Shown here in pieces: positions 1 through 43,647 of a DNA stretch of 54,066 nt. A program made the position numbers and the translations under genes. Origin of the DNA: Diplonema papillatum (taxonomy: Eukaryota); NCBI GenBank assembly GCA_030068145.1, contig JAPJBO010000148.1:272409-326474 (forward strand), given 5' to 3'. The notes under the pieces are model-generated. The model was given only the letters and a program-made list of their open reading frames with translations. It was not told the origin of the DNA and did not search any database. Numbering within the stretch: position 1 is the first letter of the stretch; each line of letters starts with the position of its first letter.

Positions 1-100
1 CTGACCCCGTACGGACCCCGTACGGACCCCGTACGGACCCCGTACGGACCCCGTACGGACCCCGTACGGACCCCGTACGGACCCCGTACAGACCCCAGAC
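1..100. repeat. 11-bp tandem repeat GACCCCGTACG (8 perfect units at 3-90 plus degenerate units 91-100); telomere-like, with the C-rich strand 5'->3' at the left window edge
   Basis: Direct reading: ct + (gaccccgtacg)x8 then gaccccgtaca/gaccccagac. The array is cut by the window start. The G-rich complement (CGTACGGGGTC) would run 5'->3' toward the edge, as expected for a left-end telomere. Confidence 0.6.
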
Positions 101-2345: not shown

Positions 2346-2399
2346 AACCTTAAAAAGAGAGGGGTGGAGATTAGGGGGGCTGGCTATGCCGCAAGTCCT

Positions 2400-2801
2400 C
2401 GACACTCCACCTGAAAAAAAAAAACGCGCCACGTAGTCTACCACCCTCTTGAGGCTCTGGTGGTGAGGAAATGTCTACCATGCAGGGTCAAAACCTTGTG
2501 TCTTGTCATGCTACACAATCAATTACCTATACTTAACGCTGAACCATGGTTTTTGGTGGTTCAGTGTTAAGTATAGGTAATTACCTATACTTAACATTGA
2601 ACCACCCAAAATCGCGGTTCAATGTTAAGTATAGGTATGGGTTCAGCGTTAAGTATAGGTAATTACCTATACTTAACATTGAACCGCCCAAAATCACGGT
2701 TCAATGTTAAGTATAGGTAATTACCTATACTTAACATTGAACCACGATTTTGGGCGGTTCAATGTTAAGTATAGGTATGCTACGCATACTTTACACATGC
2801 C
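2400..2801 (-). repeat. 402-bp hairpin-rich terminal block of a DIRS-like element (copy 1)
   Basis: By eye, identical to 8160..8561. It contains a lone MITE-type TIR (2479-2505) and four consecutive ~57-bp hairpins with stem TTACCTATACTTAACATTGAACC (2523-2580, 2581-2637, 2663-2720, 2721-2777). Their loops are mutually complementary (cccaaaatcgc / gcgattttggg). Confidence 0.8.
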
Positions 2802-3550
2802 ATGGCGGTGTCTACATGTGTTAGTTGCCGAAACACGCCCATGCCCTGGAAAAGAGTCGCTATCTCCGAGGTCAGATCGCCCGTTATGACCGTCCAACGT
2901 GAGGGGGAAAAGGGATTTGCACGTTTGCCCTTTGGGGTCGTGTCCCAATCTATCACAACTTCCTCTTTCCGCACCAGTATGAATTGATGGTGCTTGAGAG
3001 CTGCGACCTCCCCCCACCTGCTTGCTGTCTTCCAAGCCACGAAAGCTGCTAGTCGTAGGGGTGGTTGCTGTTCTCGCGCCCACTCTAATAGAAGTGTTTT
3101 GCTTATCGGTAACGCTTGGTGGCTGGGAATATTTCCTCCAGTGGCTCGGAGAGCCCGAGCTAGATTCAAGATCGGGCGGTTGTCCAGCTCCAAGTACCCC
3201 AACATTGCTGAGATACCTTTGGCATACGACAACTGCGCTTGGGGACTGACACGGGTTGCCATGACGGACAATGCCGCTGTGTCCGCGTTGAGAGGCAGAC
3301 CCTGGGCCGATGTCCACCTCAGCAATCTGTTCCATAGACTCTGTCTTTGGGCCGTTGTGGAACGTGCCCACATTACTGATACAAGGTTTTGGAGCATATT
3401 CCCCGCTTCGTTTGCTGTCACCATTCCTTCTTTCGTACGTACTGTCTTCTTTCCAATTCCTTGAGCTAGATTTTGAAGTACTGCTTTGGCAAAAGTGTTT
3501 ATTGCACCTTTTTGAAGCCGTGTTTCTATTGGAAATGCGACGGAGCGCAT
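2780..3550 (-). pseudogene. DIRS-like tyrosine recombinase, N-terminal and core part, 3'-truncated where it runs into the hairpin block
   Basis: Protein contains ...LRLAAFVAWKTASRWGEVAALKHHQFILVRKEEVVIDWDTTPKGKRANPFSPSRW..., homologous to the YR ORFs at 7286..7819 and 11746..12180. It lacks the HxxR...Y catalytic end because the ORF terminates inside the repeat block at 2780-2801. Confidence 0.6.
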
Positions 3551-3670
3551 TTCTCGCGTTTGTTGACTTCGGAAGTCCAGCGACTTTTTGACAAAGCAGG
3601 TCTTCTGTAGGCCTAGCTGCGGGATGTAAATCGATGTGACTGGCTGAGGGGAAGGCAGAAAGACGGCCAG

Positions 3671-4681
3671 TCAATGCTGTCTCTCTGCCCTGACGTTTCC
3701 CTGCCCTTTAAATCCTTTGGCAGAAGCAGTGTACTGTCGCTTCCCTTTCCCCTTCTTGCCACCGAGTGCAATAGCAGCTTTTGCGACTTCGTCTGTGGAA
3801 GACTGCTCCAACTTCAACTTGTCCAACAGTGCACCTCGGGGCACTCGGTCTCGCACATGGTAGTGATGCACCCGCAAATTGCGGAGCAGCACATTGCCCA
3901 AGTCTAACAGGGGAGTCGACTCCCATCCCGCTGTCATGGCGCAACCAATCACCCACAGACGAAGCTGGTCAAAAGCTGCTTCCAAATCTTTCCCGCCTTG
4001 CAATCCAGTCAAGCCGCTCACATACTGTGCTTGCAATGCAAAAATCAACCCATCGGGGCTGCTCGATTCAAAAATTTCCTTCCACTCATGCACACTCTTC
4101 ACCGCCGCTGGGTGAGACCATTTCTGTTCAGTGGCTCTCATCTTCGTCTGGGACTCTTGGTCTACATCAAACTCTTTCACGTTTTCTGGTTTATGTTGGA
4201 ACTGCAATTGCTGTTCCAACCCCATCAGTCGTGCTTCCATCGTACTCCTCAAAAGATTCATCTCACGCTGAGCTGCCTCAGTTTGATGAACAGAAGCCTC
4301 AATTAACCGGTTGTAAACCCAATCTGGATCCGGGAGCAAGAATTCTCGCTCTGCACCATCGAATGGCGAAATGCCGTGCAGATAATTGAAGGCTTCGCTC
4401 AATCGCACACGAAAAGGTGTTTCTCCCTCCGCAACTTCACTGACTTTCCTCAACACTCCTGCATGCATGAGCCACCCGCTCGTGTCATTTTTACGTCTGC
4501 AGGAGTACACAACTAACTTTCCAAGAAGGGACTCTGCCTGATCCAGGAGCATACGCTCCGACATCTCGACTGGCGCTGGGAACCCCTGTCCTGCTGTTGC
4601 AGAGGGGGATGTCGCCCTTGCACGTGCAGTGCGCACTTCACTCAGTGTAAACGGGGCAAGGTTGGGTTCGGGGCTCGACAT
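3671..4681 (-). CDS. Gag-like coiled-coil ORF (336 aa) upstream of the YR gene in the same element
   Basis: Clean 336-aa ORF on the same strand immediately 5' of the YR ORF. It has a charged, helical, coiled-coil-like composition and a C-terminal basic GGKKGKGKRQ tail. No specific family recognised. Confidence 0.4.
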   Translation of the reverse strand: MSSPEPNLAPFTLSEVRTARARATSPSATAGQGFPAPVEMSERMLLDQAESLLGKLVVYSCRRKNDTSGWLMHAGVLRKVSEVAEGETPFRVRLSEAFNYLHGISPFDGAEREFLLPDPDWVYNRLIEASVHQTEAAQREMNLLRSTMEARLMGLEQQLQFQHKPENVKEFDVDQESQTKMRATEQKWSHPAAVKSVHEWKEIFESSSPDGLIFALQAQYVSGLTGLQGGKDLEAAFDQLRLWVIGCAMTAGWESTPLLDLGNVLLRNLRVHHYHVRDRVPRGALLDKLKLEQSSTDEVAKAAIALGGKKGKGKRQYTASAKGFKGQGNVRAERQH

Positions 4682-5651
4682 GATGCACTAAAAGAAGAGG
4701 AAAGGAAATAGAGGTTCAGAGTCAGCAAGGATCAAACAGTCTCTTCGCCTTCGGAAGCAGCAACGAACAGCTAGTTCGAGAGTGTCGCGGCAGACGTCTA
4801 GAAAACGAAGACGAGGCACGTTACCGTGAGGATCAACAAGTCGTCCTTTAAGCCGCCCCGACGTCCCGTTTCAAGAGCCTCGGCCAATATCTGCCTTCTC
4901 CTGCTTCGCTCTTCCGGCTGCAAGATGCAGGTTGCCTCTAACAACGATGGGGATCCCGTTACAAGAACTGCGCCCAGGTGCCGATTGCTCTTCGCGGTCA
5001 AAAGCGATACGGTGGCCACAATCTTTGGAGGGTGGGCGGAAAAGAACGGGGATCGAAGTGTACGGGAGGGGTAAGGTAACCTGTGGGAGAGTGCCTTGCG
5101 ATACAGAATTCCCTCAGTTAAACTACGATGGATCCCGCGTCGTGTGGACAGCGCCAGTGCATCCGCCACGTACGCGTTCGCAGTCCGGACAAGACGGTTC
5201 CGTTCGCCGGGTGAGAGAGGGGGCTCCGAGAGGAGGGGACGTCCGCATCGCCCCGAGACCGGAGGAGGGAAGCGGTCCACGGCGTCTACTGCTTGGTCTT
5301 GCTCCTGGTTGCGTTCGTCCGCTGAGGGGCCTGGGGAGCGTCGGGGGGAAGAGCTTCGCCCGAGTGTCGGGTGCGGGGCCTCGGGCTGCGCTTCCTGGGC
5401 GGCTTCGAGGCGGGCTGCTCCTCGGCTTTCTGTAGAGCCTGGAAGACGCTCCGTAGAAACGGAGGAAACCCGGCCTCGTGCTGATGCCGGTGCTGGAGGC
5501 TGCCTGCAAGAGACCACCCGGCTTTCAGATCCCGCAAACTCGACATAAGTTCCGGGGGCAAGGGTGGGTGGCAATTTGTTTTACGTTTTAACTAGCTAAG
5601 GTTGACCTCCTGTTGGAGTGGTTCACATTGGTTCCGAGCACTGACGGCAAT

Positions 5652-7151
5652 TCAATGCGCCAATTCCCTCAGTAAACTGCAGGAATGGTCGCGGTATCTT
5701 GGCACCCGCGATGGGAGATCTGCAGGGTTCCCTTCGCTCCGCACCCAGCGGACAGAGAGTGCGCAACCAAGGGTTCGCACCCTGGCAAGACCAGAAACCA
5801 CCGCGTTGTTCAGGTCTGCGTCTCGCATGCTGAACCCTTTCCGCGCTACTCCCTGCACGGTGGTATTGTCCACCACAACATCGATCCGTCCACCGGCAAA
5901 GGCGTCCGGGATCGACATTGCCGAACGTTCGAAGGCCATGGCCTCTAGAACATTAATGTGCAGCCTCGATTCCTCGGCTGACCAGGGAGCCCCCAAGATG
6001 GTTATTTCCGCCGTACAAGAGTCCACGAGAACACCACCCCATCCCTTCTTGCTCGCATCAACGAACACTGTCAACGACGGTACAGGGAGCTTCGTCGGTA
6101 TTGCCCGTGGCCTCATGACCGCGTCTATCCAACCTTGCAAAGATGAGCGTATGCATGGAGACAGGGAAACTTGTTCCGTCGGCATCCTCGTTCCTCGGTT
6201 CAACGAGTTCGTTACTCTGCGCATGAATTTCAGCGCAAACCAGAACGAGCCGGGGAAAATGCCCGCAATTGCAGATGCGTGGAGCAGCCTGCCCCCCAAG
6301 GCTTCGATATCACCGGCAGAAAGCGACGAAGCCTGGAGCTCGTACCGCGTCGTCATCAGCTTTCTGCAAAGCTTGCTGCTCAGCGAGACCTGCGAGACAC
6401 TGTGTCGCCAGTCGACCCCGATGAATTCATAACGGGGTGCAGCCGTCCGGGAATCAGCGTCTTTCCATGTCAGCGAGCAGTCCACCGCCGTCTGGTCCAA
6501 CCGCCGCGTCGCTGCAAGAACGCACTGCCTTGAGCCAGCGTAGCGAATGTTGTCGACCCAAACATGGACAACAACTTCACCCTCAACGAGCTCCGGCAAC
6601 ACAAAGTCGGGATGCCCGGCTGACACCGCTGCCAGCGTGTGCATGAGCTCGGGCGCACATGCATGGCCCATCGGGAGACGGTTCAACTCCCACCAGCTGC
6701 CGTCGTCCGTTGTGAAACGGAACAAGTGTCGAACGGCTTTCGGGATCTCTATTGCGTAGAATCCCGTGCGGAAGTCACGAGTAGTCCCGCACTCTTCATG
6801 TACTGCGCCCAAGTAGTGGGACACGTGAGCCAACGGAACGGACGCAACATAACCGGCGGCTTCAGCCGCACGGTTTCCGTCGAGGGTCCAAAGAATGAAC
6901 CGTTGCCGAAGAGAACCGTCTTTCTCCTCAAGAACCGTGAACGGCACCGAGGCCCAGGGGCCCGGGCCTGCTGCCCTCGCGGCTATCTCGTACTCCTCGA
7001 GCTGCTTCGCGTGACCCAAAACCAGCCTCGACGGGGATCCAAGCGACGGCAGAATGCTGCTCACGTCCGGGTAAAACGTCTTCCGCCACGTGTCGTCGAA
7101 GCGCGAGCGAACGCTTTCGGTCATGCGGGCACGCAGTTTGTTGACGTCCAT
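5652..7151 (-). CDS. Reverse transcriptase - RNase H polyprotein of DIRS-like element copy A
   Basis: ATG at 7151 (..VKPMDVNKL..). RT motifs include LNRLPMGHACAPELMHTL and HVWVDNIRYAGS. The RNase H part has ITILGAPWSAEESRLHINVLEAMAF ... VDNTTVQGVARKG ... WVRSEGNPADLPSR. The ORF-track extension 7152..7832 is a non-coding read-through overlapping the YR gene in another frame. Confidence 0.7.
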   Translation of the reverse strand: MDVNKLRARMTESVRSRFDDTWRKTFYPDVSSILPSLGSPSRLVLGHAKQLEEYEIAARAAGPGPWASVPFTVLEEKDGSLRQRFILWTLDGNRAAEAAGYVASVPLAHVSHYLGAVHEECGTTRDFRTGFYAIEIPKAVRHLFRFTTDDGSWWELNRLPMGHACAPELMHTLAAVSAGHPDFVLPELVEGEVVVHVWVDNIRYAGSRQCVLAATRRLDQTAVDCSLTWKDADSRTAAPRYEFIGVDWRHSVSQVSLSSKLCRKLMTTRYELQASSLSAGDIEALGGRLLHASAIAGIFPGSFWFALKFMRRVTNSLNRGTRMPTEQVSLSPCIRSSLQGWIDAVMRPRAIPTKLPVPSLTVFVDASKKGWGGVLVDSCTAEITILGAPWSAEESRLHINVLEAMAFERSAMSIPDAFAGGRIDVVVDNTTVQGVARKGFSMRDADLNNAVVSGLARVRTLGCALSVRWVRSEGNPADLPSRVPRYRDHSCSLLRELAH

Positions 7152-7285
7152 CGGCTTGACTGCGGCCACATGCAAAGGGGACTGGCGCTCTGCCGGCGTC
7201 CGAGGCAGCCGAGTCGACCCACCGCGACGCGTCACCGAGTGTGCCCGCAGCGTCCGAAACGCCTGATCCGACCGCAGATGGCGAC

Positions 7286-7819
7286 TCAGAGATGCTTCGT
7301 CGCCTTCGCGGTTCCGAGGACCCGGGCGAGGGCGAGCAGATTGCCGCCGTAACGAATCGTTGTTTCCGAGATCGCTCCTTCCGTCCCACCCGGTTCTTCG
7401 TGCTTGGCGAGCCGGTGTACGCTGCACAGCGGGATCGAAACGCCACTCGCAATCAGGTCGAACAGACGCGTCACTGCACCCCTTTTGATGGAGTGCGCCG
7501 AGTAGCGTCGCATCTCGGGGGATCGCGTCCACATCGAATCCAGGCCCGTTGTCGTCAGAGAACACAGTTCGTCGAAGGGGGCACTCGCCTGGAACATCTC
7601 GGCCAGTTCGGGCGTCAGAGGGCCCACTATCACGGCAAACCTCGACGGTTTGAACGGGTTCCGCCGTCGGCCTTTCGGGGTTTGCTCCCAGTCGATCACG
7701 ATCTCCTCCGGCGCGACACGCAGAAACTGCTTCGAGGACAGGGCGGCAGCCTCGGCCCACCTCGACGCCGATTTCCATGCCAGCAGAGTGCACATTTTCA
7801 CCGCCGGCGCCTGCGATAA
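7286..7819 (-). pseudogene. Tyrosine recombinase catalytic domain (copy A), N-terminal half separated by a MITE insertion
   Basis: LLAWKSASRWAEAAAL...YSAHSIKRGAVTRL...TIRYGG carries the HxxR and catalytic Tyr. Homologous N-terminal residues (DRATLVQWAL) continue on the far side of the MITE at 8032-8157. Confidence 0.65.
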
Positions 7820-8031
7820 CATGCAGGGTCAAAACCTTGTGTCTTTTTAAAACGCTCCCGCGGGGCCGATGGAGCCCAAAAAAAAATTTTGGAAAAAAAA
7901 AATTATGCTCAACTTCCTCAAAAATTACTGCAGAGTTTGTTCCAAACTTTTAAAATTCAAAAACCCCACTTTTTTTCCGGAAATTTTTTTTTTGCCATTT
8001 TCAAAAAGACACAAGGTTTTGACCCTGCATG
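7820..8031. mobile_element. MITE copy M1 (212 bp, 29-bp TIR CATGCAGGGTCAAAACCTTGTGTCTTTTT, TSD ATAA)
   Basis: Perfect TIRs at both ends. The 4-bp direct duplication ATAA sits at 7816-7819 and 8032-8035. M1 lies inside the YR gene of copy A. Confidence 0.85.
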
Positions 8032-8159
8032 ATAACGCCCACTGCACAAGTGTCGCTCTGTCCACAGGTACTGCCTGAGCCCGCGGCACCGCCGCCCCCG
8101 AGTTGCGCAGTGCCGAAGCCATCATCCGCAATGGCTGGTTCTCTAATCCCATCGCCGAT

Positions 8160-8561
8160 CGACACTCCACCTGAAAAAAAAAAACGCGCCACGTAGTCTA
8201 CCACCCTCTTGAGGCTCTGGTGGTGAGGAAATGTCTACCATGCAGGGTCAAAACCTTGTGTCTTGTCATGCTACACAATCAATTACCTATACTTAACGCT
8301 GAACCATGGTTTTTGGTGGTTCAGTGTTAAGTATAGGTAATTACCTATACTTAACATTGAACCACCCAAAATCGCGGTTCAATGTTAAGTATAGGTATGG
8401 GTTCAGCGTTAAGTATAGGTAATTACCTATACTTAACATTGAACCGCCCAAAATCACGGTTCAATGTTAAGTATAGGTAATTACCTATACTTAACATTGA
8501 ACCACGATTTTGGGCGGTTCAATGTTAAGTATAGGTATGCTACGCATACTTTACACATGCC
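8160..8561 (-). repeat. 402-bp hairpin-rich terminal block (copy 2), 3' end of DIRS-like copy C
   Basis: Same sequence as 2400..2801. Its lone left TIR at 8239-8265 is matched by a right TIR at 8712-8740, giving a 500-bp TIR-bounded composite. Confidence 0.8.
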
Positions 8562-8963
8562 TGTCTCGGCTCTTGTAGGTGACCCCCCTGACCCCCCACG
8601 CAAAAATCCCTTTGGCGAAAAAAAATATTTTCGCCAACCCCTTTTCAGATTTTTTTTTTTTTTTGGCGAAAAAATTTTTTTTCACCAAAGGGAAAAACCC
8701 CTGCCATTTTCAAAAAGACACAAGGTTTTGACCCTGCATGATAAACGTGCAGTTGTGCTGCAACTGGGATTTTTAGTAGGGAATTCCAAAAAGAAGAACG
8801 GGACGTGTTGTGTGTAAACGGGGAGGGGGAACCTGTGAAGGTATGCTTGCAATATCGGAATTCCCTCAGTTAAACTACGAGAATTCCATGCATGCATGTG
8901 AACGGAAAGGGGACGCGCAGTAAAGAAGCGAAGGGGAAATCGTCTCGGCCGGGCAGGATGAAC

Positions 8964-9176
8964 CTAACCTTCCGAACGAGAACGAACCCCATCGCGTGTA
9001 AAAAACTTCCGCAACGCTTGTTCAACTACCCTCTTTCCATTCCTGGAAGAAAGCAGCTGGGGCGACATGCGGGAAGGTAAATCCGCAATATTCGACACAG
9101 AGCGCACCCAAGCAATTGTGAAGGTGGCCCCCACTTCACGCAGTCTTGACAAAGCTGCTACAATAGCCTCATTTAA
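8964..9176 (-). pseudogene. RNase H C-terminal fragment (copy C)
   Basis: ...FTIAWVRSVSNIADLPSR... matches the RNase H ends of the other copies. The upstream part is separated by MITE M2. Confidence 0.55.
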
Positions 9177-9389
9177 CATGCAGGGTCAAAACCTTGTGTC
9201 TTTTTGAAAATGGCAAAAAAAAAAAATTCCAGAAAAAAAATGGGGTTTTTGAATTTTAAAAGTTTGGAACAAACTCTGCAGTAATTTTTGAGGAAGTTGA
9301 GCAAAATCTTTTTTTTCCAACATTTTTTTTTGGGGTCCATCGGCTCCGCGGGAGCGTTTTAAAAAGACACAAGGTTCTGACCCTGCATG
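9177..9389. mobile_element. MITE copy M2 (TSD TTAA), inserted in the RNase H of copy C
   Basis: TIRs at both ends. TTAA at 9173-9176 and 9390-9393. Internal region is in inverted orientation relative to M1. Confidence 0.85.
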
Positions 9390-9399
9390 TTAAGGGTTT

Positions 9400-9615
9400 T
9401 GAGGCCATGCACATACCCTTCCTTGCTGCGGATGCTACAGTCGTGTTATCGACTTTAAAATGAACGTTATTACTCAGAAAAGCGGGAGGCAGAGCAAATA
9501 TTGCGTTGCGGAACGCCAACGCTTCTAGAATGTTGATGTGCAACAAGGATTCAGCATCAGTCCATGAATTGCCTGCGACGATTACTTCCTTAGTAGTGTT
9601 GTCGATTGCAACCAT
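9400..9615 (-). pseudogene. RNase H N-terminal fragment (copy C)
   Basis: ...SWTDAESLLHINILEALAFRNA...FKVDNTTVASAARKG... parallels the RNase H of the 5652..7151 ORF. Confidence 0.55.
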
Positions 9616-9746
9616 GCCCCATCCTCGCAGTGAAGCATCAACAAAAACATCAAATGGGGTGCATGGAAGGATATTTTGTACTTTGAGCGGTTTTCCAACA
9701 GCAGCACGCCAAACTTTTAACTCCTTTTGAACGGAAGGAGGGATAC

Positions 9747-9958
9747 CATGCAGGGTCAGAACCTTGTGTCTTTTTAAAACGCTCCCGCGGAGCCGATGGA
9801 CCCCAAAAAAAAAAGTTGGAAAAAATTTTTTTTGCTCAACTTCCTCAAAAATTACTGCAGAGTTTGTTCCAAACTTCTAAAATTCAAAAAACCCATTTTT
9901 TTTCCAGAATTTTTTTTTTTGCCATTTTCAAAAAGACACAAGGTTTTGACCCTGCATG
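9747..9958. mobile_element. MITE copy M3 (TSD ATAC)
   Basis: TIRs plus ATAC at 9743-9746 and 9959-9962. Lies between the RT and RNase H fragments of copy C. Confidence 0.85.
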
Positions 9959-10647
9959 ATACTTACAAGAGAGGAAGCGCTTCTTTTCCCGGAGTTGAGG
10001 CTGTTAATGACTCGCCGCAAGAACTTAATCGCAAACCAAAACCGACCAAGTAGTACCCCTGATACGGCGCTTGCGTGCATGAGTCGGCCTCCAAAAGACT
10101 CCAACTCTCCGGCAGTTACTTTATCAAACTGCACGCTCTCTAACTTTGACAAGAGTCTTTTTGAAGGCGAAACTTCACCTGTTGTGTGGTCAAAACTTAC
10201 CCCGATAAAATCATACACGGAGGCTGCATCCTCGCTGTCCTCCGGTTTCCAAGTCACACCGGCTCCCTGCGCCGTCTTGTCCAGACGGGCTGTTTCTGCC
10301 TTTACCGACCTTTCGCTCCCCGTTAGACGAATATTGTCTATCCAGGTATGGACAGTCACGTCTTGGGCCCTGTATTCCTCCTTGACATAGTCCGGGTGCC
10401 CTCCAATGGTTGATGTCAGGGTGTGCATAAGTTCTGGAGCACAACTGTGTCCCATAGGCAACCGGGTTAGTTCGAACCATCTGCCTTTATCGTCGGTGTA
10501 TCGAAAATGCTTCCGCGAACCCTCAGGTATTTCTACCTGATAGAATCCACACCGTAAGTCCCTCAGGGATGCACACTCGTTCGATACTACATGTATGTAC
10601 TTAGAAACATGTTCTAACGGCACCTGAGCTTTGTATGAAGCCCTCAA
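9959..10647 (-). pseudogene. Reverse transcriptase fragment (copy C)
   Basis: ...FELTRLPMGHSCAPELMHTL...VTVHTWIDNIRLTGS... is homologous to the copy-A RT. Confidence 0.6.
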
Positions 10648-10686
10648 GTTTTCATTTGCTTCACGTGTCCATAATATAAACCTCTG

Positions 10687-10899
10687 TCATGCAGGGTCAG
10701 AACCTTGTGTCTTTTTAAAACGCTCCCGCGGGGCCGATGGACCCCAAAAAAAAAATTTGGCAAAAAAACTTTTTGCTCAACTTCCGCAACAATTACCGCA
10801 GAGTTTGTTCCAAATTTTTAAAATTCAAAAAACCCATTTTTTTTCTGGAAATGAAAATTTGGCCATTTCCAAAAAGACACAAGGTTCTGACCCTGCATG
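10687..10899. mobile_element. MITE copy M4 (TSD CTGT)
   Basis: TIRs plus CTGT at 10683-10686 and 10900-10903. It splits the RT of copy C. Confidence 0.85.
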
Positions 10900-11255
10900 C
10901 TGTCTCAAGCCCGAGGGCTTCTCTTCCAACACCGTGAAAGGTACAGACATCAAGGTTCCTGGTCCCGTTGCAGGAGCAGCAATATCACACTTCACCAATT
11001 GTTCTGCATGAGCAGCACTGAATGAAGAACGGATACCTCTCATTGGTAACGATTGAGAAGACGGGGGATTAAAAGTTGCATTCCAAACGAGATCAAAACG
11101 TTCCCGTACGCATTTCCTCATTCTTAGCTTCAGCTTCTCAACCTGTAAAGGTTGCACCTTTGTAGCGTGCAGTGGAGCGTTTCTTTCTTCATCTGTTGCC
11201 GGGATTCTGGAACAATGGGCACGCCGGGTCAGAGTATGCTTGTTGTGTGAACTCA
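10900..11255 (-). pseudogene. RT N-terminal fragment (copy C)
   Basis: ...KLKLRMRKCVRERFDLVWNATFNPP...TGPGTLMSVPFTVLEEKPSGLRQ is homologous to residues ~230-320 of the 5652..7832 ORF (NKLRARMTESVRSRFDDTWRKTFYPD...PGPWASVPFTVLEEKDGSLRQ). Confidence 0.55.
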
Positions 11256-11258
11256 TAA

Positions 11259-11470
11259 CATGCAGGGTCAAAACCTTGTGTCTTTTTGGAAATGGCCAAA
11301 ATTTTATTTCCAGAAAAAAAATGGGTTTTTTGAAATTTAAAAGTTTGGAACAAACTCTACAGTAATTTTTGAGGAAGTTGAGCAAATTTTTTTTTTTCCA
11401 AAAATTTTTTTAGGGCTCCATCGGCCCCGCGGGAGCGTTTTAAAAAGACACAAGGTTTTGACCCTGCATG
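11259..11470. mobile_element. MITE copy M5 (TSD ATAA)
   Basis: TIRs plus ATAA at 11255-11258 and 11471-11474. Confidence 0.85.
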
Positions 11471-11534
11471 ATAAATATCGCGTCACTTCCCCAGTCTTCA
11501 GGGCACGCGCTACGCAATTGGATCGCCTCCATAT

Positions 11535-11745
11535 CATGCAGGGTCAAAACCTTGTGTCTTTTTGGAAATGGCCAAAAAAAAAATTCTGGAAAAAAAATGG
11601 GTTTTTTGAATTTTAAAAGTTTGAAACAAACTCTGCAGCAATTTTTGAGGAAGTTGAGCAAATTTTTTTTTTCCAAAAATTTTTTTAGGGCTCCATCGGC
11701 CCCGCGGGAGCGTTTTAAAAAGACACAAGGTTTTGACCCTGCATG
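11535..11745. mobile_element. MITE copy M6 (TSD ATAT)
   Basis: TIRs plus ATAT at 11531-11534 and 11746-11749. Sits at the 3' end of the copy-C YR fragment, just after the catalytic Tyr. Confidence 0.85.
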
Positions 11746-12180
11746 ATATCTTATGGTCATTTCGGGAAGACCCGATGCCCCTTGATGTTTCGCTAAACGC
11801 GCTATAAGCCAATCTTGTAGAGGGACACCTTGAGACAACAGTTGGAAAAGATGTGAAAGAGCTCCTCGCTTGATACTGTGACCGGAGAACGGCCGCATTC
11901 GAGGATCCTTGTTCCAAAGCGCGTTTAGCTCGGCTGTGCTTACTTGGGTCAGACTTTGAAAACTGCCTAAGCTTCGGACAAGTGTCGCAATTACTCTGGT
12001 CAGGTCGCCTTTTATCACTGTCCAGCGTGACGGAGAAAAAGGGTTGGCCCATTTTCCTTTCGGGGTTGTGCCCCAGTCCACAATCACCTCCTCTTCCTGG
12101 ACCAGTAGAAACTGGGACGATCCCAGAGCTGCGACTTCTCCCCACCTGCTCGCCGACTTCCATGCTAATAGAGCCGCCAT
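11746..12180 (-). pseudogene. Tyrosine recombinase fragment (copy C): MAALLAWKSASRWGEVAAL...GHSIKRGALSHL...MTIRYH
   Basis: Has the HxxR and catalytic Tyr. Bounded by MITEs M7 (upstream) and M6 (downstream). Confidence 0.6.
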
Positions 12181-12184
12181 GGTA

Positions 12185-12397
12185 TCATGCAGGGTCAAAA
12201 CCTTGTGTCTTTTTGGAAATGGCCAAAATTTTATTTCCGGAAAAAAAATGGGTTTTTTGAATTTTAAAAGTTTGGAACAAACTCTGCGGTAATTTTTGAG
12301 GAAGTTGAGCAAAAAAAATTTTTTCCAAAAAAAATTTTTGGGCTCCATCGGCCCCGCAGGAGCGTTTTAAAAAGACACAAGGTTTTGACCCTGCATG
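12185..12397. mobile_element. MITE copy M7 (TSD GTAT)
   Basis: TIRs plus GTAT at 12181-12184 and 12398-12401. It is 5 bp upstream of the YR Met codon of copy C. Confidence 0.85.
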
Positions 12398-12446
12398 GTA
12401 TGCTATGCGCAACTATGCGCAACTATGCGGAACGACCCCAAAGTAT

Positions 12447-12598
12447 CATGCAGGGTCAGAACCTTGTGTCTTTTTGGTATGGCCAAAATTTTATTTCCAG
12501 AAAAAAAAGTTGGAAAAAAAAAAATTCGCTCAAGTTCAGCAAAAATTACTGCAGAGTTTGTTCCAAACTTTTAAAATTCAAAAAACCCAATTTTTTTC
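12447..12598. mobile_element. MITE copy M8, partial or chimeric (left TIR only, internal region switches orientation)
   Basis: Left TIR at 12447, flanking GTAT. There is no right TIR; the copy abuts the palindromic tandem repeat at 12598. Confidence 0.6.
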
Positions 12599-12800
12599 TA
12601 AAAATGTAAAATACAGAGAGCTCTCTGTATTTTACATTTTTAGCGAAAAATTCGCTAAAAATGTAAAATACAGAGAGATCTCTCTGTATTTTAGCGAATT
12701 TTTCGCTAAAAATGTAAAATACAGAGAGCTCTCTGTATTTTACATTTTTAGCGTTTTTTTTGCTAAAAATGTAAAATACAGAGAGCCTCTCTGTATGTTA
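12598..12800. repeat. Tandem array of ~50-bp perfect palindromes (AAAATGTAAAATACAGAGAGCTCTCTGTATTTTACATTTT + TAGCGAAAAATTCG spacer) x4
   Basis: Direct reading. Each unit is self-complementary around GAGCTC / GAGATCTC. Confidence 0.8.
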
Positions 12801-12873
12801 CACATGCCTCGTTCCGCATAGTTGCGCATAGTTGTTTGGGCTGTTCCGCATAGTTGTGCATAGTTGCGCATAG

Positions 12874-13085
12874 CATGCAGGGTCAAAACCTTGTGTCTTT
12901 TTAAAACGCTCCCGCGGGCCCGATGGAGCCCTAAAAAATTTTTTGGAAAAAAAAAAATTTGCTCAACTTCCTCAAAAATTACTGCAGAGTTTGTTCCAAA
13001 CTTTTAAAATTCAAAAAACCCAATTTTTTTCCGGATTTTTTTTTTTTGCCATTTTCAAAAAGACACAAGGTTTTGACCCTGCATG
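12874..13085. mobile_element. MITE copy M9 (TSD ATAG)
   Basis: TIRs plus ATAG at 12870-12873 and 13086-13089. Inserted in the CGCATAGTTG minisatellite. Confidence 0.85.
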
Positions 13086-13345
13086 ATAGTTGTTTGGGCT
13101 GTTCCGCATACTTTGGGGTCGTTCCGCATAGTTGCGCATAGTTGTTTGGGCTGTTCCGCATACTTTGGGGTCGTTCCGCATAGTTGCGCATAGTTGCGCA
13201 TAGTTGTTTGGGCTGTTCCGCATACTTGGGGTCGTTCCACATAGTTGTGCATAGTTGCGCATAGTTGTTTGGGCTTTTCCGCATAGTTGCGCATAGTTGC
13301 GCATAGTTCCGCATAGTTCCGCATACTTTGGGGTCGTTCCGCATA
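13086..13345. repeat. Minisatellite built from CGCATAGTTG / TTCCGCATA words (also 12800-12871, and in reverse orientation 12400-12440 and 13805-13985)
   Basis: Direct reading of repeated gttccgcatagttgcgcatagttgtttgggct units. Confidence 0.75.
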
Positions 13346-13584: not shown

Positions 13585-13802
13585 CATGCAGGGTCAAAAC
13601 CTTGTGTCTTTTTAAAACGCTCCCGCGGGGCCGATGGACCCCAAAAAAAAAAATGGGTTTTTTGAATTTTAAAAGTTTGGAACAAACTCTGCGGTAATTT
13701 TTGAGGAAGTTGAGCAAATTTTTTTTTTGCCAAAATTTTTTTTTGGGGTCCATCGGCCCCGTGGGAGCGTTTTAAAAAGACACAAGGTTCTGACCCTGCA
13801 TG
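13585..13802. mobile_element. MITE copy M10 (variant with extended palindrome; flanks GTAC / CTAT do not match)
   Basis: TIRs are present. The subterminal aaaacgctcccgcggggccgatgg is found at both ends in inverted orientation. Confidence 0.75.
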
Positions 13803-14400
13803 CTATGCGGAACTATGCGCAAACTGTGCGGAAAAGCCCTAGTTGTTTGGGCTGTTCCGCATACTTTGGGGTCGTTCCGCATAGTTGTTTGGGCTTTTCC
13901 GCATAGTTGCGCATAGTTGCGCATAGTTGTTTGGGCTGTTCCGCATACTTTGGGGTCGTTCCGCATAGTTGCGCATAGTTGCGCATGTCCGGCCATAGAA
14001 TCCAGACCAGACACTACGTTCTGCCACGTCTTCTCCAGCGACCTCGGCATGCACCCAGGTCCTTCCCCATTCAGAGTTTGCAGCCCTCGGATATATACGC
14101 GTCGAGGCCGTTCATCGCCTTGACTCTGCTCGAGGCATATGTGTCTGCGCCCGTCCCGGTGTCCATCGCAGATGCAATTCGCACCCTTTTGGGCACCGTC
14201 GTCTCACCTCTTCCTCGATAGGCGGCAACGGGCCCGTCGAGCAGCCCCTGTTCCTCTGCCAGCTCGATCAGAAACTGCTCGCACGCCTTCGTCGCCGACA
14301 GCCAGAGTGCTTCCACTTTCCCTGGTGCCGCATCGCCGAAGCGATTCACCAACAACTCTTCCGCCCTTGCCGCTGTCCGCCCCTCGTCCACCTTGCTTAT

Positions 14401-14611
14401 CATGCAGGGTCAAAACCTTGTGTCTTTTTAAAACGCTCCCGCGGGGCCGATGGAGCCCTAAAATTTTTTTTGGAAAAAAAAAAATTTGCTCAACTTCCTC
14501 AAAAATTACTGCAGAGTTTGTTCCAAACTTTTAAAATTCAAAAAACCCAATTTTTTCTGGATTTTTTTTTTTTGCCATTTTCAAAAAGACACAAGGTTTT
14601 GACCCTGCATG
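14401..14611. mobile_element. MITE copy M11 (TSD TTAT)
   Basis: TIRs plus TTAT at 14397-14400 and 14612-14615. Confidence 0.85.
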
Positions 14612-14643: not shown

Positions 14644-14855
14644 CATGCAGGGTCAGAACCTTGTGTCTTTTTAAAACGCTCCCGCGGGGCCGATGGACTT
14701 AAAAAAAAATTTTTGGAAAAAAAAAAAATTGCTCAACTTCCTCAAAAATTACTGCAGAGTTTGTTCCAAACTTTTAAAGTTCAAAAACCCCAATTTTTTT
14801 CCGGAATTTTTTTTTTTGCCATTTTCAAAAAGACACAAGGTTTTGACCCTGCATG
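14644..14855. mobile_element. MITE copy M12 (TSD ATAC)
   Basis: TIRs plus ATAC at 14640-14643 and 14856-14859. Confidence 0.85.
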
Positions 14856-25006: not shown

Positions 25007-28000
25007 TTGCCATCTATTGCACCACAAACAGAACCAGTACCGACGATCGCGCCAGCAACTGACGCACCGCCGACATTTGCACCGCAGACTGCTTCACCGC
25101 AAACAAATGCACCACCAACGAATGCGCCGCCAACTAATGCACCGTCAACAGCTGCACCTCCAACGAGTTCACCACCAACAGGCGCACCGGCAACGACTGC
25201 ACCACCAACAAATGCACCACCGACCACTGCACCACCAACGAATGCGCCACCGACTAATGCACCGCCAACTGATTCGCCACCAACAACTGCACCACCAACG
25301 AATGCACCACCAACAAATGCGCCACCAACAACGGCACCGCCAACGAATGCGCCACCAACGAATGCGCCACCAACAAATGCGCCACCAACGAATGCGCCAT
25401 CAACAGCTGCACCACCGACCACTGCACCACCAACGAATGCGCCACCGACTAATGCGCCACCAACAACTGCACCGCCAACGAATGCGCCACCAACGAATGC
25501 GCCACCAACGAATGCACCACCAACGAATGCGCCACCAACGAATGCACCACCAACAAATGCACCACCAACTAATGCACCACCAACAAATGCGCCACCAACA
25601 ACGGCACCGCCAACGAATGCGCCACCAACGAATGCGCCACCAACAAATGCGCCACCAACGAATGCGCCATCAACAGCTGCACCACCGACCACTGCACCAC
25701 CAACGAATGCGCCACCGACTAATGCGCCACCAACAACTGCACCGCCAACGAATGCACCACCAACGAATGCGCCACCAACGAATGCACCACCAACAAATGC
25801 GCCACCGACTAATGCGCCACCAACAACTGCACCACCAACGAATGCACCACCAACGAATGCGCCACCAACGAATGCACCACCAACAAATGCGCCACCGACT
25901 AATGCACCACCAACAACTGCACCACCAACGAATGCACCACCAACAAATGTGCCACCAACAACGGCACCGCCAACGAATGCGCCACCAACGAATGCACCAC
26001 CAACAAATGCGCCACCAACAACTGCACCACCAACGAATGCGCCACCAACGAATGCACCACCAACAAATGCACCACCAACAAATGCGCCACCAACAACTGC
26101 ACCACCAACGAATGCGCCACCAACGAATGCACCACCAACGAATGCGCCACCAACAATGCACCACTGCACCACCAACAACTGCACCACCAACGAATGCGCC
26201 ACCAACGAATGCACCACCAACGAATGCACCACCAACAACTGCACCACCAACGAATGCGCCACCAACGAATGCACCACCAACAAATGCGCCACCAACTAAT
26301 GCACCACCAACAACTGCACCACCAACGAATGCACCACCAACGAATGCGCCACCAACAATGCACCACCAACGAATGCACCACCAACGAATGCACCACCAAC
26401 GAATGCACCACCAACGAATGCGCCACCAACGAATGCACCACCAACAAATGCGCCACCAACGAATGCACCACCACAACTGCAACCAACAATGCACCAACGA
26501 ATGCACCACCAACAAATGCGCCACCAACGAATGCACCACCAACAACTGCACCACCAACGAATGCACCACCAACGAACGCGCCACCAACGAATGCACCACC
26601 AACAAATGCGCCACCAACAACTGCACCGCCAACGAATGCGCCACCAACGAATGCACCACCAACAAATGCGCCACCAACAAATGCGTCACCAACAATTGCA
26701 CCACCAACGAATGCACCGCCAACGAATGCGCCACCAACGAATGCGCCATCAACAACTGCACCACTGACCGGTGCACCGCCAACGAATGCACCACCAACGA
26801 ATGCGCCACCAACAACTGCACCACCAACGAATGCGCCACCAACAACTGCACCACTGACCGGTGCACCGCCAACGAATGCACCACCAACGAATGCAGCACC
26901 AACAAATGCGCCACCAACAACTGCACCACTGACCGGTGCACCGCCAACGAATGCACCACCAACGAATGCGCCACCAACATCTGCACCGCCAACGACCGCA
27001 CCGCCAACGAATGCGCCATCAACAACTGCACCACCGACCGGTGCACCGCCAACGAATGCGCCACCAACAACTGCACCACTAACGGATGCGCCACCAACAT
27101 CTGTACCGCCAACGAATGCGCCATCAACAATTGCACCACTGACCGGTGCACCGCTAACGAATGCACCACCAACATCTGCACCGCCAACAAATGCGCCACT
27201 AACAACTGCACCACCAACGACTGCGCCACCGACCAATGCTCCGACAACAACTGCACCGTCAACGAATGCGCCCCGAACAATCGTACCGCCAACAACTGCA
27301 CCACCAACAAATGCGCCCCGAACAAACGCACCGACAACGACTGCACCACCAACATCTGCACCGCCAACGAATGCGCCCCGAACAAACGTACCGACAACAA
27401 CAGCACCAACGAATGCGCCTTTCACGAACGCACCACCAACGAATTCACCACGAACGAATGCACCAGCTACAGTCGCACCACAAACAGGTGCCCCATTGAC
27501 CAGTGCGCCGCTAACTGATGTCCCGGGAACAAGTGCACCATCAACTGCTGCACCGGCTACAATTGCACCGCCAACTGATGCACCCGCAACAGTCGCTCCA
27601 CGAACAGATGTACTGCTGACCAGTGTACCGACGAATGCGCCACCAACTTATGCGCCCAGGACAGTCGCTTCACCATCTGATGTTCCGCAAACAAGTACTC
27701 TTGCACCGGCTACAAATGCACCGCCAACTGATGCACCCGCAACAGTCGCTCCACGAACAGACGCACCGCTGGCCAGTGTACCGACGAATGCGCCACCAAC
27801 TGATGCGCCCAGGACAGTCGCTTCACCATCTGATGTTCCGCAAACAAGTACTGGTGCACCGGCTACAAATGCACCTGCTACCACATCGCCTCGAGCACCA
27901 CTACCGTGTCCGCTGACGGCTCGGCCTACCAAGTCAAAGTCTTCCTGGGGGGGATGGAAGGCACCACGGCCTGCTCCTCGCAGACGATCCGGCGACACGG

Positions 28001-28053: not shown

Positions 28054-29295
28054 GAAGCGACCCACGTACCAACTCTCCCGGGCACGCAACGAAATTGCCA
28101 ACGAAACCGAACCGCGTGCGCAAAGGGGATCCACACAGGCAGAGCAACGCGTGCGCGCAGACGCCATACTTGCTCTGACAAGTACAATGATAAGGCCAAC
28201 TTAAACAACTGAAGGGGGGGTAGACCTATTATCCACCCGTTTTTTTTCCGGAATTTCCGCGAACATTAAAACTAACGGCGTTAAATTGCTATTATCCAGG
28301 CTTTATCCAATGGTTATCCAAGGGCTATCCAGGGTTTTGTTGCTGGTGTCATTTTTCCTTCGCGCCTTCGGCGCGATATTGATTGTTGTTTTCGTAAAAC
28401 CAACCTGTCCGGTCGAAACCCAGCTCACGTTCCCTGTTAGTGGGTGAACAAGCCAACCCTCAGACAATTCTGCTTGTCTAAGAAGTCAACATCGAAGGAT
28501 CGAAAAGCAACATTGCTATGAACGCTTGGCTGTCACAAGCCCTTCCCTGCGGCAATTTTTCTGTCACCTCCGGCTTCATCCCTTGAACATAACTGAGGGA
28601 TTCTGATACACAAGGCACTCCCGCGATTCCCGTTCTTTTTTCCTGCCTGGCCGACGTTCATCAGCCGTATCTGCAGCCGCGCCAGTAGCACCTGCACCGG
28701 GTCCGACCAATTCTGAGTGCACTGAGACGACAGAAAGGAAAATAGTCCACAAGCAGCGCTCTCCTCTTCACAGCGCCAGCAAAGCAAAGCGCACCCACAG
28801 GGTGGCAGAGTGTGCTGGTTCACAAAACACTACACCAAACCGCGGCCTTTGTTGGCAACATTTACATTCTATGCTGTTTCCACACTTCTTCTCACTTGGT
28901 GTGCTGTTGTTACACTCACAGCGGGTGGACAGGTCCACTTCCGTAAAAAATTAACTCGCCACTGAAAAACTAAAAAGTTAAATTCATAGATGGCCGTTAT
29001 ATACCGTTATATAACATTATATAACGGTATTCCCGGAGTTATTTGTTACCCCCCCCCCAGCCTAGAACATTGCTTGGCCCTTGACCCGCGCCCACGGCAA
29101 GGTCTTTGTGGTTTTTTTTTGGTGGCCTCATCACCCGGGAGAGGGGGGGTCCGGGGGGCTTCGCTCCCCGGCGAACGGTATGGTACATCAAATTGGGCCA
29201 AATTGGGGGTCACCCCCCGGCGCACGGTACACTACACCAGGTACAGGTACAGTCCCGGGTGTGTGACGATAGACGTCGGCTTGGCGCTTTACAGC

Positions 29296-37480: not shown

Positions 37481-37888
37481 ACTATTGTGCAGTCTATCGT
37501 CACAGATTCGTCATCTGGTGATTCCTCGAGCTCGTCGTCAAACTGCACATCGGATGTTAAGCGCGCACCGGAGACAAACAGTACGCGGGCAAGAAGCGAC
37601 CGAAGCATGACACGACGCGTGCAAAGAGATAGTCTGTAGCGTCTATCTTCACAGATTGTTGCTGCATAACAAGTTCAAACTACTACCACTACTGGCTAAA
37701 AGCACTTGGAACGTTGCGCTTCCCTGCTTTCTGAGATAACGGGAGTTCGGTTTGTTGAAGGCATTATGGTCTTTCAGTCGCGATCCGCGCTGTATCAACA
37801 AAGACCTCTTTGCGGATCAGTTCCCGAGGATCGAAGTAGAGTTGCAGAGAAAGCGTTTCCACTCAGTAGCTACTGCGGTAGGTGGGTT

Positions 37889-38373
37889 CCAATCAGTATG
37901 GCATCAGGGAAGCTCCATATTCAGTAGTAGGTAGTCGGGTACTTGTTAGCAGGGGTCCAATCAGTATGGCATCAGGGAAGCTCCATATTCAGTAGTAGGT
38001 AGTCGGGTACTTGTTAGCAGGGGTCCAATCAGTATGGCATCAGGGAAGCTCCATATTCAGTAGTAGGTAGTCGGGTACTTGTTAGCAGGGGTCCAATCAG
38101 TATGGCATCAGGGAAGCTCCATATTCAGTAGTAGGTAGTCGGGTACTTGTTAGCAGGGGTCCAATCAGTATGGCATCAGGGAAGCTCCATATTCAGTAGT
38201 AGGTAGTCGGGTACTTGTTAGCAGGGGTCCAATCAGTATGGCATCAGGGAAGCTCCATATTCAGTAGTAGGTAGTCGGGTACTTGTTAGCAGGGGTCCAA
38301 TCAGTATGGCATCAGGGAAGCTCCATATTCAGTAGTAGGTAGTCGGGTACTTGTTAGCAGGGGTCCAATCAGA
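37889..38373. repeat. 68-bp tandem repeat x ~7 (CCAATCAGTATGGCATCAGGGAAGCTCCATATTCAGTAGTAGGTAGTCGGGTACTTGTTAGCAGGGGT)
   Basis: Direct reading; the copies appear identical. Confidence 0.9.
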
Positions 38374-42845: not shown

Positions 42846-43313
42846 GCCGCAGGCTTTGCCGCAGGCTTTGCCGCAGGCTTTGCCGCAGGCTTTGCCGCAG
42901 GCTTTGCCGCAGGCTTTGCCGCAGGCTTTGCCGCAGGCTTTGCCGCAGGCTTTGCCGCAGGCTTTGCCGCAGGCTTTGCCGCAGGCTTTGCCGCAGGCTT
43001 TGCCGCAGGCTTTGCCGCAGGCTTTGCCGCAGGCTTTGCCGCAGGCTTTGCCGCAGGCTTTGCCGCAGGCTTTGCCGCAGGCTTTGCCGCAGGCTTTGCC
43101 GCAGGCTTTGCCGCAGGCTTTGCCGCAGGCTTTGCCGCAGGCTTTGCCGCAGGCTTTGCCGCAGGCTTTGCCGCAGGCTTTGCCGCAGGCTTTGCCGCAG
43201 GCTTTGCCGCAGGCTTTGCCGCAGGCTTTGCCGCAGGCTTTGCCGCAGGCTTTGCCGCAGGCTTTGCCGCAGGCTTTGCCGCAGGCTTTGCCGCAGGCTT
43301 TGCCGCAGGCTTT
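42846..43313. repeat. Perfect 12-bp microsatellite-like array (GCCGCAGGCTTT) x 39
   Basis: Direct reading; 468 bp with no variant units. Flanked by ~90-bp repeats (ggaaacaggggtggcc(t/c)ggctcaccgactagtt(t/c)gtaatgtgaaaaggaatcggaa(t/c)cgcttcgctctcgag(a/g)ccactgtgcaa) at 42518-42605, 42760-42845 and 43540-43620. Confidence 0.9.
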
Positions 43314-43647
43314 GTCGCAAGGTCTGCCACTTCTTCGGTGTCGAGCTTCGGATAAAACAGCCGTCTGTGTTTCATCAGCGCAGAGGGCTGCAGGCGTGGA
43401 AACGCGGTTGCACACGAGGCAAATGAGGTGGTCCTTTTGCCGTGGGCGGAAACGAACTGGAGCAAAGTGCAAGTGCACTCGCTTTGTTGATTCCAGCAGG
43501 GTGTCGTAGTGCTGGTGGTCAACGTCTTCCTCGCCGGCTTCCTCGTTCGGTCTGGCTTGGGTACAAACGAGTTCGTATTGTGAAAAGGAATCGGAATTGC
43601 TTCGCTCTCGAGACCACTGTGCAAGGTAGCAGCAGCAGGCAGTTCGA

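Follow-up and report, generated by a model that had tools for sequence, protein, structure and literature searches.

A probable head-to-tail cluster of truncated VIPER-like retrotransposons in repeat DNA of Diplonema papillatum, invaded by miniature inverted-repeat elements

To which group do retroelements belong that carry a tyrosine recombinase ahead of the reverse transcriptase, and is a hairpin-rich block that adjoins two of them part of their structure? These questions are raised by the region at 2.4–12.4 kb of a 54,066-nt stretch of Diplonema papillatum DNA (assembly GCA_030068145.1, contig JAPJBO010000148.1, positions 272,409 to 326,474, forward strand), the whole of which we analysed and refer to as the window. 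D. papillatum is a marine protist, and Diplonema lies within the Euglenozoa, as do the kinetoplastids. We consider it highly probable that the region is a head-to-tail cluster of three truncated VIPER-like tyrosine-recombinase retrotransposons (VIPER lineage, order DIRS) in repeat DNA, that it was later invaded by ∼212-bp miniature inverted-repeat transposable elements (MITEs) with 4-bp target-site duplications (TSDs), and that the hairpin block, 403 bp long and present twice, is foreign to the retroelements. The kind of element is already known; what is new here is the occurrence of VIPER-lineage elements in a diplonemid.

The coding pieces of the three copies, termed B, A and C in order of position, all lie on the minus strand and comprise a gag-like open reading frame (ORF), a tyrosine recombinase (YR) and a reverse transcriptase (RT) with RNase H (RH), just as the original prediction had read them. 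Copy B lacks the YR C-terminus and the RT/RNase H ORF (pol). Its gag-like ORF1 (4681–3674) encodes 336 amino acids from an ATG at 4681 and ends in a TGA at 3673–3671; its YR (3670–2802) continues in the gag frame after that one TGA and reaches from the N-terminal domain into the first part of the catalytic domain (AWKTASRW), where the hairpin block breaks it off at about residue 249. Copy A lacks gag and the YR N-terminus. Its YR (8158–7289) is truncated at its 5′ end at about residue 113 by the second block and is split by a MITE (7820–8031, TSD ATAA), yet retains the catalytic residues R (in ASRW), HSIKRG, LAKH and RY. The pol frame of copy A is open over 8156–5655, amounting to 762 codons after removal of the MITE, with a leader (8156–7242) that overlaps YR in the −1 frame and an RT/RNase H part at 7241–5655. 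Copy C, which holds six MITE insertions, is likewise missing gag and the N-terminus of YR; its YR catalytic domain (12185–11475) is 5′-truncated at about residue 165 by a cluster of MITE and satellite DNA and has one 1-nt frame shift near the MITE at 11535–11745, and its pol (11750–8967) has its RT/RNase H coding piece at 11238–9066. Truncation therefore falls within YR in every copy, at the 5′ end in A and C and at the 3′ end in B.

The layout given by tblastn is interrupted in copies A and C. Copy C matches as YR (12180–11746), RT (11238–10900 and 10686–9958) and RNase H (9744–9370 and 9176–9066), copy A as YR (8146–8036 and 7813–7289) followed by RT/RH to 5655, and copy B as gag (4681–3674) and YR (3550–2783). 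The interruptions in A and C are MITE insertions of 211–213 bp. Indeed, when the MITEs at 11535–11745, 11259–11470, 10688–10899, 9747–9958 and 9177–9389 are removed in silico, each with one 4-bp TSD, the pol of copy C becomes an uninterrupted frame of 568 codons, and the YR and pol frames of copy A likewise run on once their insertion is excised. We considered the MITEs of copy C as introns and rejected the idea, as inspection of the sequence found no GT…AG boundaries able to remove a MITE together with one TSD.

The three copies differ substantially from one another. By tblastn of the window ORFs against the window, the RTs of A and C are ∼50% identical in amino acids, and the YR of B is 69% identical to that of C and 51% to that of A. 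Because identities are only ∼50% for RT and 51–69% for YR, the copies represent different lineages and are not, as had been proposed, three copies of one family; all three are truncated. D. papillatum hypothetical proteins on record from 8 contigs are 100% identical to the pol of copy A, a pattern that recent amplification could produce, and dozens of further D. papillatum proteins are 45–86% identical to its RT/RNase H ORF. These matches mark the window as nuclear DNA of this diplonemid.

Pfam and NCBIfam searches of all ORFs found nothing for YR or gag, and only sub-threshold matches for RT and RNase H. Neither a methyltransferase (whose absence the original prediction had also noted) nor a protease or a DDE integrase was found among the element ORFs of the window, for which the weak RT and RNase H matches were all that Pfam returned; the pol ORF ends at most ∼65 residues past the weak RNase H match (ORF residues 587–663 of 726), with no methyltransferase match. 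A protein search with YR gave diplonemid-type proteins only, and no match named TATE or VIPER. Because Pfam was weak and the YR search gave no named match, we took as references the published RT and YR alignments of Ribeiro et al. 2019 (PMC6681497, supplements 16 and 18).

The Diplonema YR catalytic domains match the VIPER YR clade only (Trypanosoma cruzi Dm28c, T. theileri, Crithidia fasciculata and L. pyrrhocoris), with E values of 1e-12 to 1e-22 and 31–37% identity; the YRs of TATE, DIRS, Ngaro, Crypton, Cre, Xer and lambda stand at E ≥7e-4. The RTs match best in the same place: blastp E values are 1e-31 to 1e-42 (35–41% identity) against VIPER RTs, with copy A at 1e-32 to 1e-38 (35–38%), 1e-22 to 1e-29 against TATE RTs, and ≥3e-8 against all of DIRS, PAT, Ngaro, Gypsy, retroviral, caulimovirus, hepadnavirus and BEL RTs. 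In neighbour-joining bootstraps, YR joined diplonemid-type and VIPER sequences in 195 of 200 replicates, and RT joined diplonemid-type and all VIPER-like sequences in 196/200 and diplonemid-type and VIPER sequences in 154/200; VIPER and TATE RTs to the exclusion of diplonemid-type ones were recovered in just 2/200. The four diplonemid-type sequences form a clade of their own (YR 177/200, RT 189/200). The RT also carries the motif WIDNIR instead of YxDD, as do the VIPER-like reference RTs.

Since the YR profile matched no PDB sequence, we compared folds. For a full-length homologue with 57% identity to the YR of copy A, the AlphaFold model has a predicted local distance difference test (pLDDT) score >80 over most of the catalytic domain, and its best PDB match by Foldseek is Cre recombinase (E 2e-7, template-modelling score 0.54–0.60), followed by phage integrases. 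Little or no variation is seen at the catalytic R, HxxR, H and Y residues in the alignment of the YR family. In coding content, in the order gag–YR–RT/RH with overlap, in RT grouping and in YR grouping the elements agree with the VIPER-like group, and these comparisons place them within it, with VIPER rather than with TATE. The homologies and trees thus bear out the earlier assignment to tyrosine-recombinase retroelements of order DIRS and specify the group.

That YR lies 5′ of RT/RH in copies A and C is confirmed by tblastn. The original prediction presented this order as a departure from known elements, a view that does not hold: VIPER and TATE have both been published as gag–YR–RT/RH elements in which the ORFs of YR and RT/RH overlap and which carry split direct repeats (PMC12278014; PMC6681497), so the order is nothing new but the one by which the VIPER-like subgroup is defined. 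The further claim that a 134-bp gap separates YR from RT/RH also falls, because 134 bp is only the distance from the YR stop of copy A to the next ATG. The RT/RH frame of copy A is open from 8156 to 5655 and spans the whole YR segment, so that YR lies inside the pol ORF and is read in a different frame. Similarly, the −1 (pol) frame of copy B is open across YR from 3707 to 2724, and was kept open in none of 5000 codon shuffles. In each of four elements (copies A and B and two intact relatives), the frame +2 relative to YR is free of stops over 218–404 codons, and shuffles of codon order reproduced the open overlap in 39, 0, 1 and 0 of 5000 trials. Because shuffled codons so rarely reproduce the open frame, the overlap of YR and pol is maintained by selection.

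The relatives are five intact or nearly intact elements at loci L001–L004 of an ENA eukaryote assembly (ERZ25333188). The ORF ahead of YR and pol in a full element at L001 shares 38% identity (E 5e-17) with the C-terminal part of the copy B gag, and YR lies upstream of RT/RH in all five. A common layout, found in copy B, in the plus- and minus-strand elements of L001, and in L003 and L004, has ORF1 ending in TGA, YR resuming in the gag frame after that one stop, and pol in the −1 frame. The pol frame, open from a point 34–184 nt ahead of the gag stop, extends across YR and on into RT/RH for ∼900–1000 codons, the first ∼350–400 of which overlap the entire YR gene and the last ∼520 of which are RT and RNase H. 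A VIPER copy of C. fasciculata (PMC6681497, supplement 10) has exactly the same layout. Copy B has a candidate site for −1 ribosomal frameshifting inside the gag/pol overlap. It is the single in-frame XXXYYYZ heptamer of this gag, G GGA AAC (3701–3695, minus strand), which is read in the zero frame and precedes the gag stop by 28 nt. In all six elements, including the C. fasciculata VIPER, a heptamer of the form X XXY YYZ (G GGA AAC, A AAA AAC or A AAA AAA) stands in the gag zero frame 25–37 nt before the stop; an entire gag holds just 1–5 in-frame slippery heptamers. A hairpin of 8–13 bp begins 3–8 nt after the heptamer in 4 of 5 elements.

These features suggest an expression model. A single genomic RNA would carry ORF1, the gag-like protein; Gag-Pol would be made by −1 ribosomal frameshifting at the conserved in-frame heptamer, and YR by readthrough of the TGA as a Gag-YR fusion, or else from a separate mRNA, which might for instance be trans-spliced. 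More broadly, we put forward tentatively, and with somewhat less than even confidence, that VIPER-type elements are ancestral to the clade of diplonemids and kinetoplastids and make three proteins from a doubly recoded and overprinted region, with Gag-Pol by −1 frameshift, YR by TGA readthrough and YR overprinted on a pol leader of ∼350–400 codons, in a layout conserved from Diplonema to Crithidia. In the literature that we searched, we did not find this gag/TGA/YR/−1 pol layout described as recoding, and its conservation offers a testable expression model for little-studied elements.

The hairpin block occurs at 2399–2801 and 8159–8561, and the two copies are 100% identical over 403 bp with abrupt and unrelated flanks. 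Each consists of 80 bp to which no origin is assigned (2399–2478 in the first), the left terminal inverted repeat (TIR) of a MITE (2479–2504; 8239–8264 in the second), four palindromic units of ∼58 nt with a half unit (2521–2777 in the first), and a tail ending in TTACACATGCC. The structure had been described correctly: there are four tandem hairpins, an extra half-stem and a small upstream hairpin, with nine stem arms per block and 18 in the window where none is expected by chance, and structure prediction on both strands gave folding far stronger than that of shuffled sequence (z = −19 for DNA of the plus strand, −18.5 for RNA of the minus strand). The finding of the same block at two sites also stands; its reading as the end of an element does not. 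In copy B the block takes the place of YR beyond about residue 249, so that the last ∼90 residues are missing, HxxR and the catalytic Y among them; in copy A it adjoins YR at about residue 113 and replaces the first ∼112 residues. Both junctions are thus breakpoints inside a gene rather than element ends. The block has a single TIR and no TSD, and the duplicated unit is not the MITE itself, because the duplicated segment begins 80 bp outside the TIR.

The second block is followed by an A/T-rich, hairpin-prone stretch (8562–8743) that ends in a MITE right TIR (8715–8740), so that 8239–8740 resembles a 502-bp MITE variant with a palindromic array inside; its flanks, CTAC and ATAA, are not a TSD. 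From this block to the pol stop of copy C there are 405 bp, the MITE right end included. A further MITE, at 12447–12808 inside satellite DNA, lacks its right TIR and has a palindromic tandem array in that place (12589–12802; units of ∼51–57 nt, AAAATGTAAAATACAGAGAG/CTCTCTGTATTTTACATTTT). This array ends in TTACACATGCC, the 11-mer that also ends both blocks, and the 10-mer TACACATGCC occurs three times in the window where 0.06 occurrences are expected. The resemblance suggests that palindrome arrays at MITE ends arise by a common route, or else that there is a variant element which has this terminus. Palindromic arrays recur here in damaged or variant MITEs and not in the retroelements; rather than a retroelement terminus, the block is a duplicated stretch whose core is a MITE end with a palindromic array. 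It has no demonstrated function. A scan of JGI metagenome contigs for the hairpin stem gave no matches, and Rfam gave none within 2.4–12.2 kb.

The ends of a related element have another form. The minus-strand element of L001 has split direct repeats that are 100% identical, repeat A of 258 nt and repeat B of 165 nt; A lies upstream of gag and again between the two B copies at the 3′ end, with B1 beginning inside the end of pol, and L001 has no inverted repeat of at least 40 nt. In the window, a stretch of ∼95 nt starting TCGTAGTTTAACTGAGGGAATTC upstream of the copy B gag (5128–5035) is ∼70% like one that lies 87 nt downstream of the copy C pol (8880–8785), within the 3′ non-coding region of that copy (8966–8744). 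It is a candidate terminal A repeat and, if so, would set the junction of A and B near 5128, within the non-coding stretch from the copy A pol stop to the copy B gag start (5654–4682). The motif AGTTTA(A)CTGAGGGAATT occurs three times on the minus strand, at the extreme end of the copy A pol ORF (5658–5678), at the probable start of copy B (5106–5128) and 87 nt past the copy C pol stop (8858–8880); it may mark a repeat boundary or be a recombination site.

By analogy with the established model of the group, RT/RH would copy the RNA, split direct repeats in the arrangement A1…B1-A2-B2 would let complete circular or junction-bearing DNA be rebuilt, and YR would integrate that DNA with no target-site duplication, often beside or inside resident copies. 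Such a preference for resident copies would account for a head-to-tail cluster. At L001, two VIPER-like elements stand head-to-head (2543–11564); the plus-strand element (6549–11308) lies between 65-nt direct repeats, 95% identical in one gapped alignment, which take in its gag start codon, and its location is exactly the inner edge of repeat A1 in the minus-strand element. This arrangement suggests site-specific insertion into a resident copy.

The elements might instead be a separate new group of YR retroelements, or DIRS1-like or Ngaro-like elements rearranged by nesting, and not VIPER-like. In favour of this, identity to trypanosomatid VIPER proteins is only 31–41%, and the diplonemid-type sequences form their own clade. 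However, that clade nests in the VIPER-like group (RT 196/200, with VIPER and TATE alone in 2/200), WIDNIR replaces YxDD in the VIPER-like reference RTs as well, and the ORF layout, the TGA, the −1 frame and the position of the heptamer are common to the C. fasciculata VIPER. Nesting fares no better, since gag, YR and pol follow one another in five independent intact elements, and therefore nesting did not produce the order. We regard either variant as extremely improbable. Almost as improbable is that the block is a genuine terminal or recombination structure of the family, a counterpart of the internal complementary region (ICR) of DIRS elements that folds in cDNA or serves as YR substrate, as the original prediction suggested. 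In favour of that idea, both blocks directly abut a fragment of a YR element, the structure is extreme (z about −19), and DIRS-1 requires a self-complementary ICR (PMC7192593). Yet the block sits at intragenic breakpoints in the YRs of copies A and B, lies 405 bp from the pol stop of copy C with a MITE right end in between, and carries the TIR of a MITE family with 4-bp TSDs, and a similar MITE with a palindrome array and the same end motif lies in satellite DNA at 12447–12808. In addition, the intact minus-strand element of L001 ends in split direct repeats that lack the hairpins, and VIPER and TATE are described with split direct repeats and not with inverted terminal repeats (ITRs) and an ICR (PMC6681497).

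The origin of the duplication is a separate matter that bears only on how the block came to be present twice, and each answer is compatible with a cluster of truncated VIPER-like elements. The block copies are 5760 bp apart, so that the block starts anew after a unit made up of block, B and A; this could have come about by a partial tandem duplication at the locus, by homologous integration of circular DNA or as an assembly artefact. In the last case, 2399–8158 would be followed by a spurious restart of its first 403 bp, and the truncations of A and B at the block would be chimeric joins. The complete identity over 403 bp, the abrupt unrelated flanks on both sides and the 5760-bp period of block plus B plus A all fit such an error, and the Diplonema genome paper warns of assembly artefacts (PMC10161547). 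Nevertheless, the sequence would look no different after a genuine local duplication, or after homologous recombination with circular DNA bearing the block, and we consider an artefact unlikely, though a good deal less so than the other alternatives weighed above. We also considered block, A and B as one circularly permuted element with 403-bp repeats resembling long terminal repeats; this was rejected, the YR segments of the supposed terminal redundancy being only 40–51% identical.

Several points weigh against our interpretation of the cluster as VIPER-like elements beside a foreign block, and against the expression model. Pfam matches to RT and RNase H are sub-threshold, and YR has neither a Pfam match nor, as a profile, a match to PDB sequences; the trees are simple neighbour-joining trees of 145–178 columns. 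The full-length relatives come from ENA assembly ERZ25333188 and not from D. papillatum. No split direct repeats were detected for the three window copies, as expected because these are truncated. The block was counted in the window only, and formally it may still be a sequence specific to the family. Frameshifting and readthrough are predictions from sequence, and the 100-nt windows downstream of the heptamers fold no better than shuffles (z −1.4 to +0.4).

The MITE family consists of elements of 211–218 bp, typically ∼212 bp, with TIRs of 26–29 nt (CATGCAGGGTCAAAACCTTGTGTCTT; CATGCAGGGTCAAAACCTTGTGTCTTTTT). There are 11 complete copies within 7.8–14.9 kb, at 7820–8031, 9177–9389, 9747–9958, 10688–10899, 11259–11470, 11535–11745, 12186–12397, 12874–13085, 13585–13802, 14401–14611 and 14644–14855, six of which count among the insertions of copy C. 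Perfect 4-bp TSDs, mostly NTAN, flank 10 of the 11. No autonomous partner of the family was identified. A satellite of ∼10-nt CGCATAGTTG-like units with higher-order units of 42 and 62 nt (12403–12446, 12810–12870, 13086–13345 and 13840–13996) alternates with the MITEs, and copy C breaks off against it at the 5′ end. On the other side of the cluster, a plus-strand open frame of 665 codons (155–2152) adjoins the first block and matches nothing in Pfam or NCBIfam; its motifs (IEIDEFSIGG … ATDGAATY … VNH … ADGLWKHLK) may resemble those of a DDE transposase of IS1595/Merlin type.

The window is rich in repeats throughout, with many tandem arrays and rRNA gene fragments in addition to the dense nest of MITEs, in agreement with the long repetitive regions described between gene clusters in the Diplonema genome paper (PMC10161547). 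A 140-nt fragment of large-subunit rRNA (28402–28541, minus strand) and a 247-nt fragment of small-subunit rRNA (34664–34910, plus strand), both isolated, fit the thousands of scattered rRNA gene pieces reported there. The 15-nt unit AACGAATGCACCACC is repeated ∼159 times in tandem at 25102–27465, a region of extreme strand composition (GC skew down to −0.39, AT skew +0.5), and 153-nt repeats come next and extend to 27875. Other arrays are GACCCCGTACG repeated 8.5 times at the start of the window (3–96), a 68-nt unit repeated seven times at 99% identity (37884–38372), GCCGCAGGCTTT repeated 39 times (42846–43319), and repeats of 63, 126 and 345 nt near the window end (52651–53413).

The literature that we read regards VIPER and TATE as elements of kinetoplastids. 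VIPER has been described as ‘known only from kinetoplastida’ (PMC3783388), and VIPER/TATE elements have been found as far out as Bodo saltans (PMC6681497); in the literature searched, we found no link between VIPER and diplonemids. Clear VIPER-lineage elements in Diplonema would set the origin of the group no later than the common ancestor of diplonemids and kinetoplastids. VIPER-like sequences were also seen in marine ‘bacterial’ metagenome bins, for which Ribeiro et al. suspected an unsequenced free-living kinetoplastid (PMC6681497); we suggest marine diplonemids as another candidate source. The assignment would furthermore correct the genome paper, which enters TATE-like ORFs under DNA transposons (PMC10161547). 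None of these results alters what is known about this kind of element.

Of the systems with which the locus can be compared, palindromic or foldback MITEs are the ones relevant to the block, which carries a TIR of the MITE family, but has a single TIR and no TSD, whereas the canonical ∼212-bp copies have both TIRs and, in 10 of 11 cases, the TSD. Elements of the Ngaro-like and PAT-like groups have the order gag–RT/RH(/MT)–YR, where MT is a methyltransferase, and differ from the present ones in that YR lies upstream of RT/RH in every element that we examined. Dictyostelium DIRS-1 shares with them a YR ORF that overlaps the 5′ part of the RT/RH ORF, and integrates preferentially into resident copies, as we propose here. 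However, DIRS1-like elements have ITRs, an ICR and a methyltransferase domain downstream of RNase H, none of which is found here, and the trees put their RT and YR in different clades. The copies in the window have no flanking ITRs; long inverted repeats occur there only as MITE copies and as the palindromic array, and L001 has none.

The closest systems are TATE and VIPER. TATE, found in Leishmania braziliensis, in other trypanosomatids and in Bodo saltans, has the same ORF order, the same overlap of YR and pol, and split direct repeats, the last being a feature of TATE that was not found in the window copies. Its YR falls in another clade (E >1e-3 to the Diplonema YRs) and its RT is more distant than that of VIPER. 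The genome paper reports >60 ORFs resembling TATE proteins and lists TATE among DNA transposons (PMC10161547), whereas the window elements are retroelements. VIPER is known from Trypanosoma cruzi, T. theileri, T. grayi and Crithidia fasciculata (Lorenzi 2006; Ribeiro 2019, PMC6681497). The elements described here differ from it in their host, a diplonemid and not a kinetoplastid, in protein sequence (31–41% identity), and in the copy B gag, which has no CCHC box where the gags of T. cruzi and C. fasciculata have one (PMC6681497). They share with VIPER the order gag–YR–RT/RH with no methyltransferase, the WIDNIR motif of RT, and the position of nearest neighbours in the YR and RT trees; the related full element at L001 has the split direct repeats A1…B1-A2-B2. 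With the C. fasciculata VIPER in particular they have in common a YR in the gag frame after one TGA, a −1 pol frame that overlaps the end of gag and all of YR, and a heptamer ∼28 nt before the gag stop.

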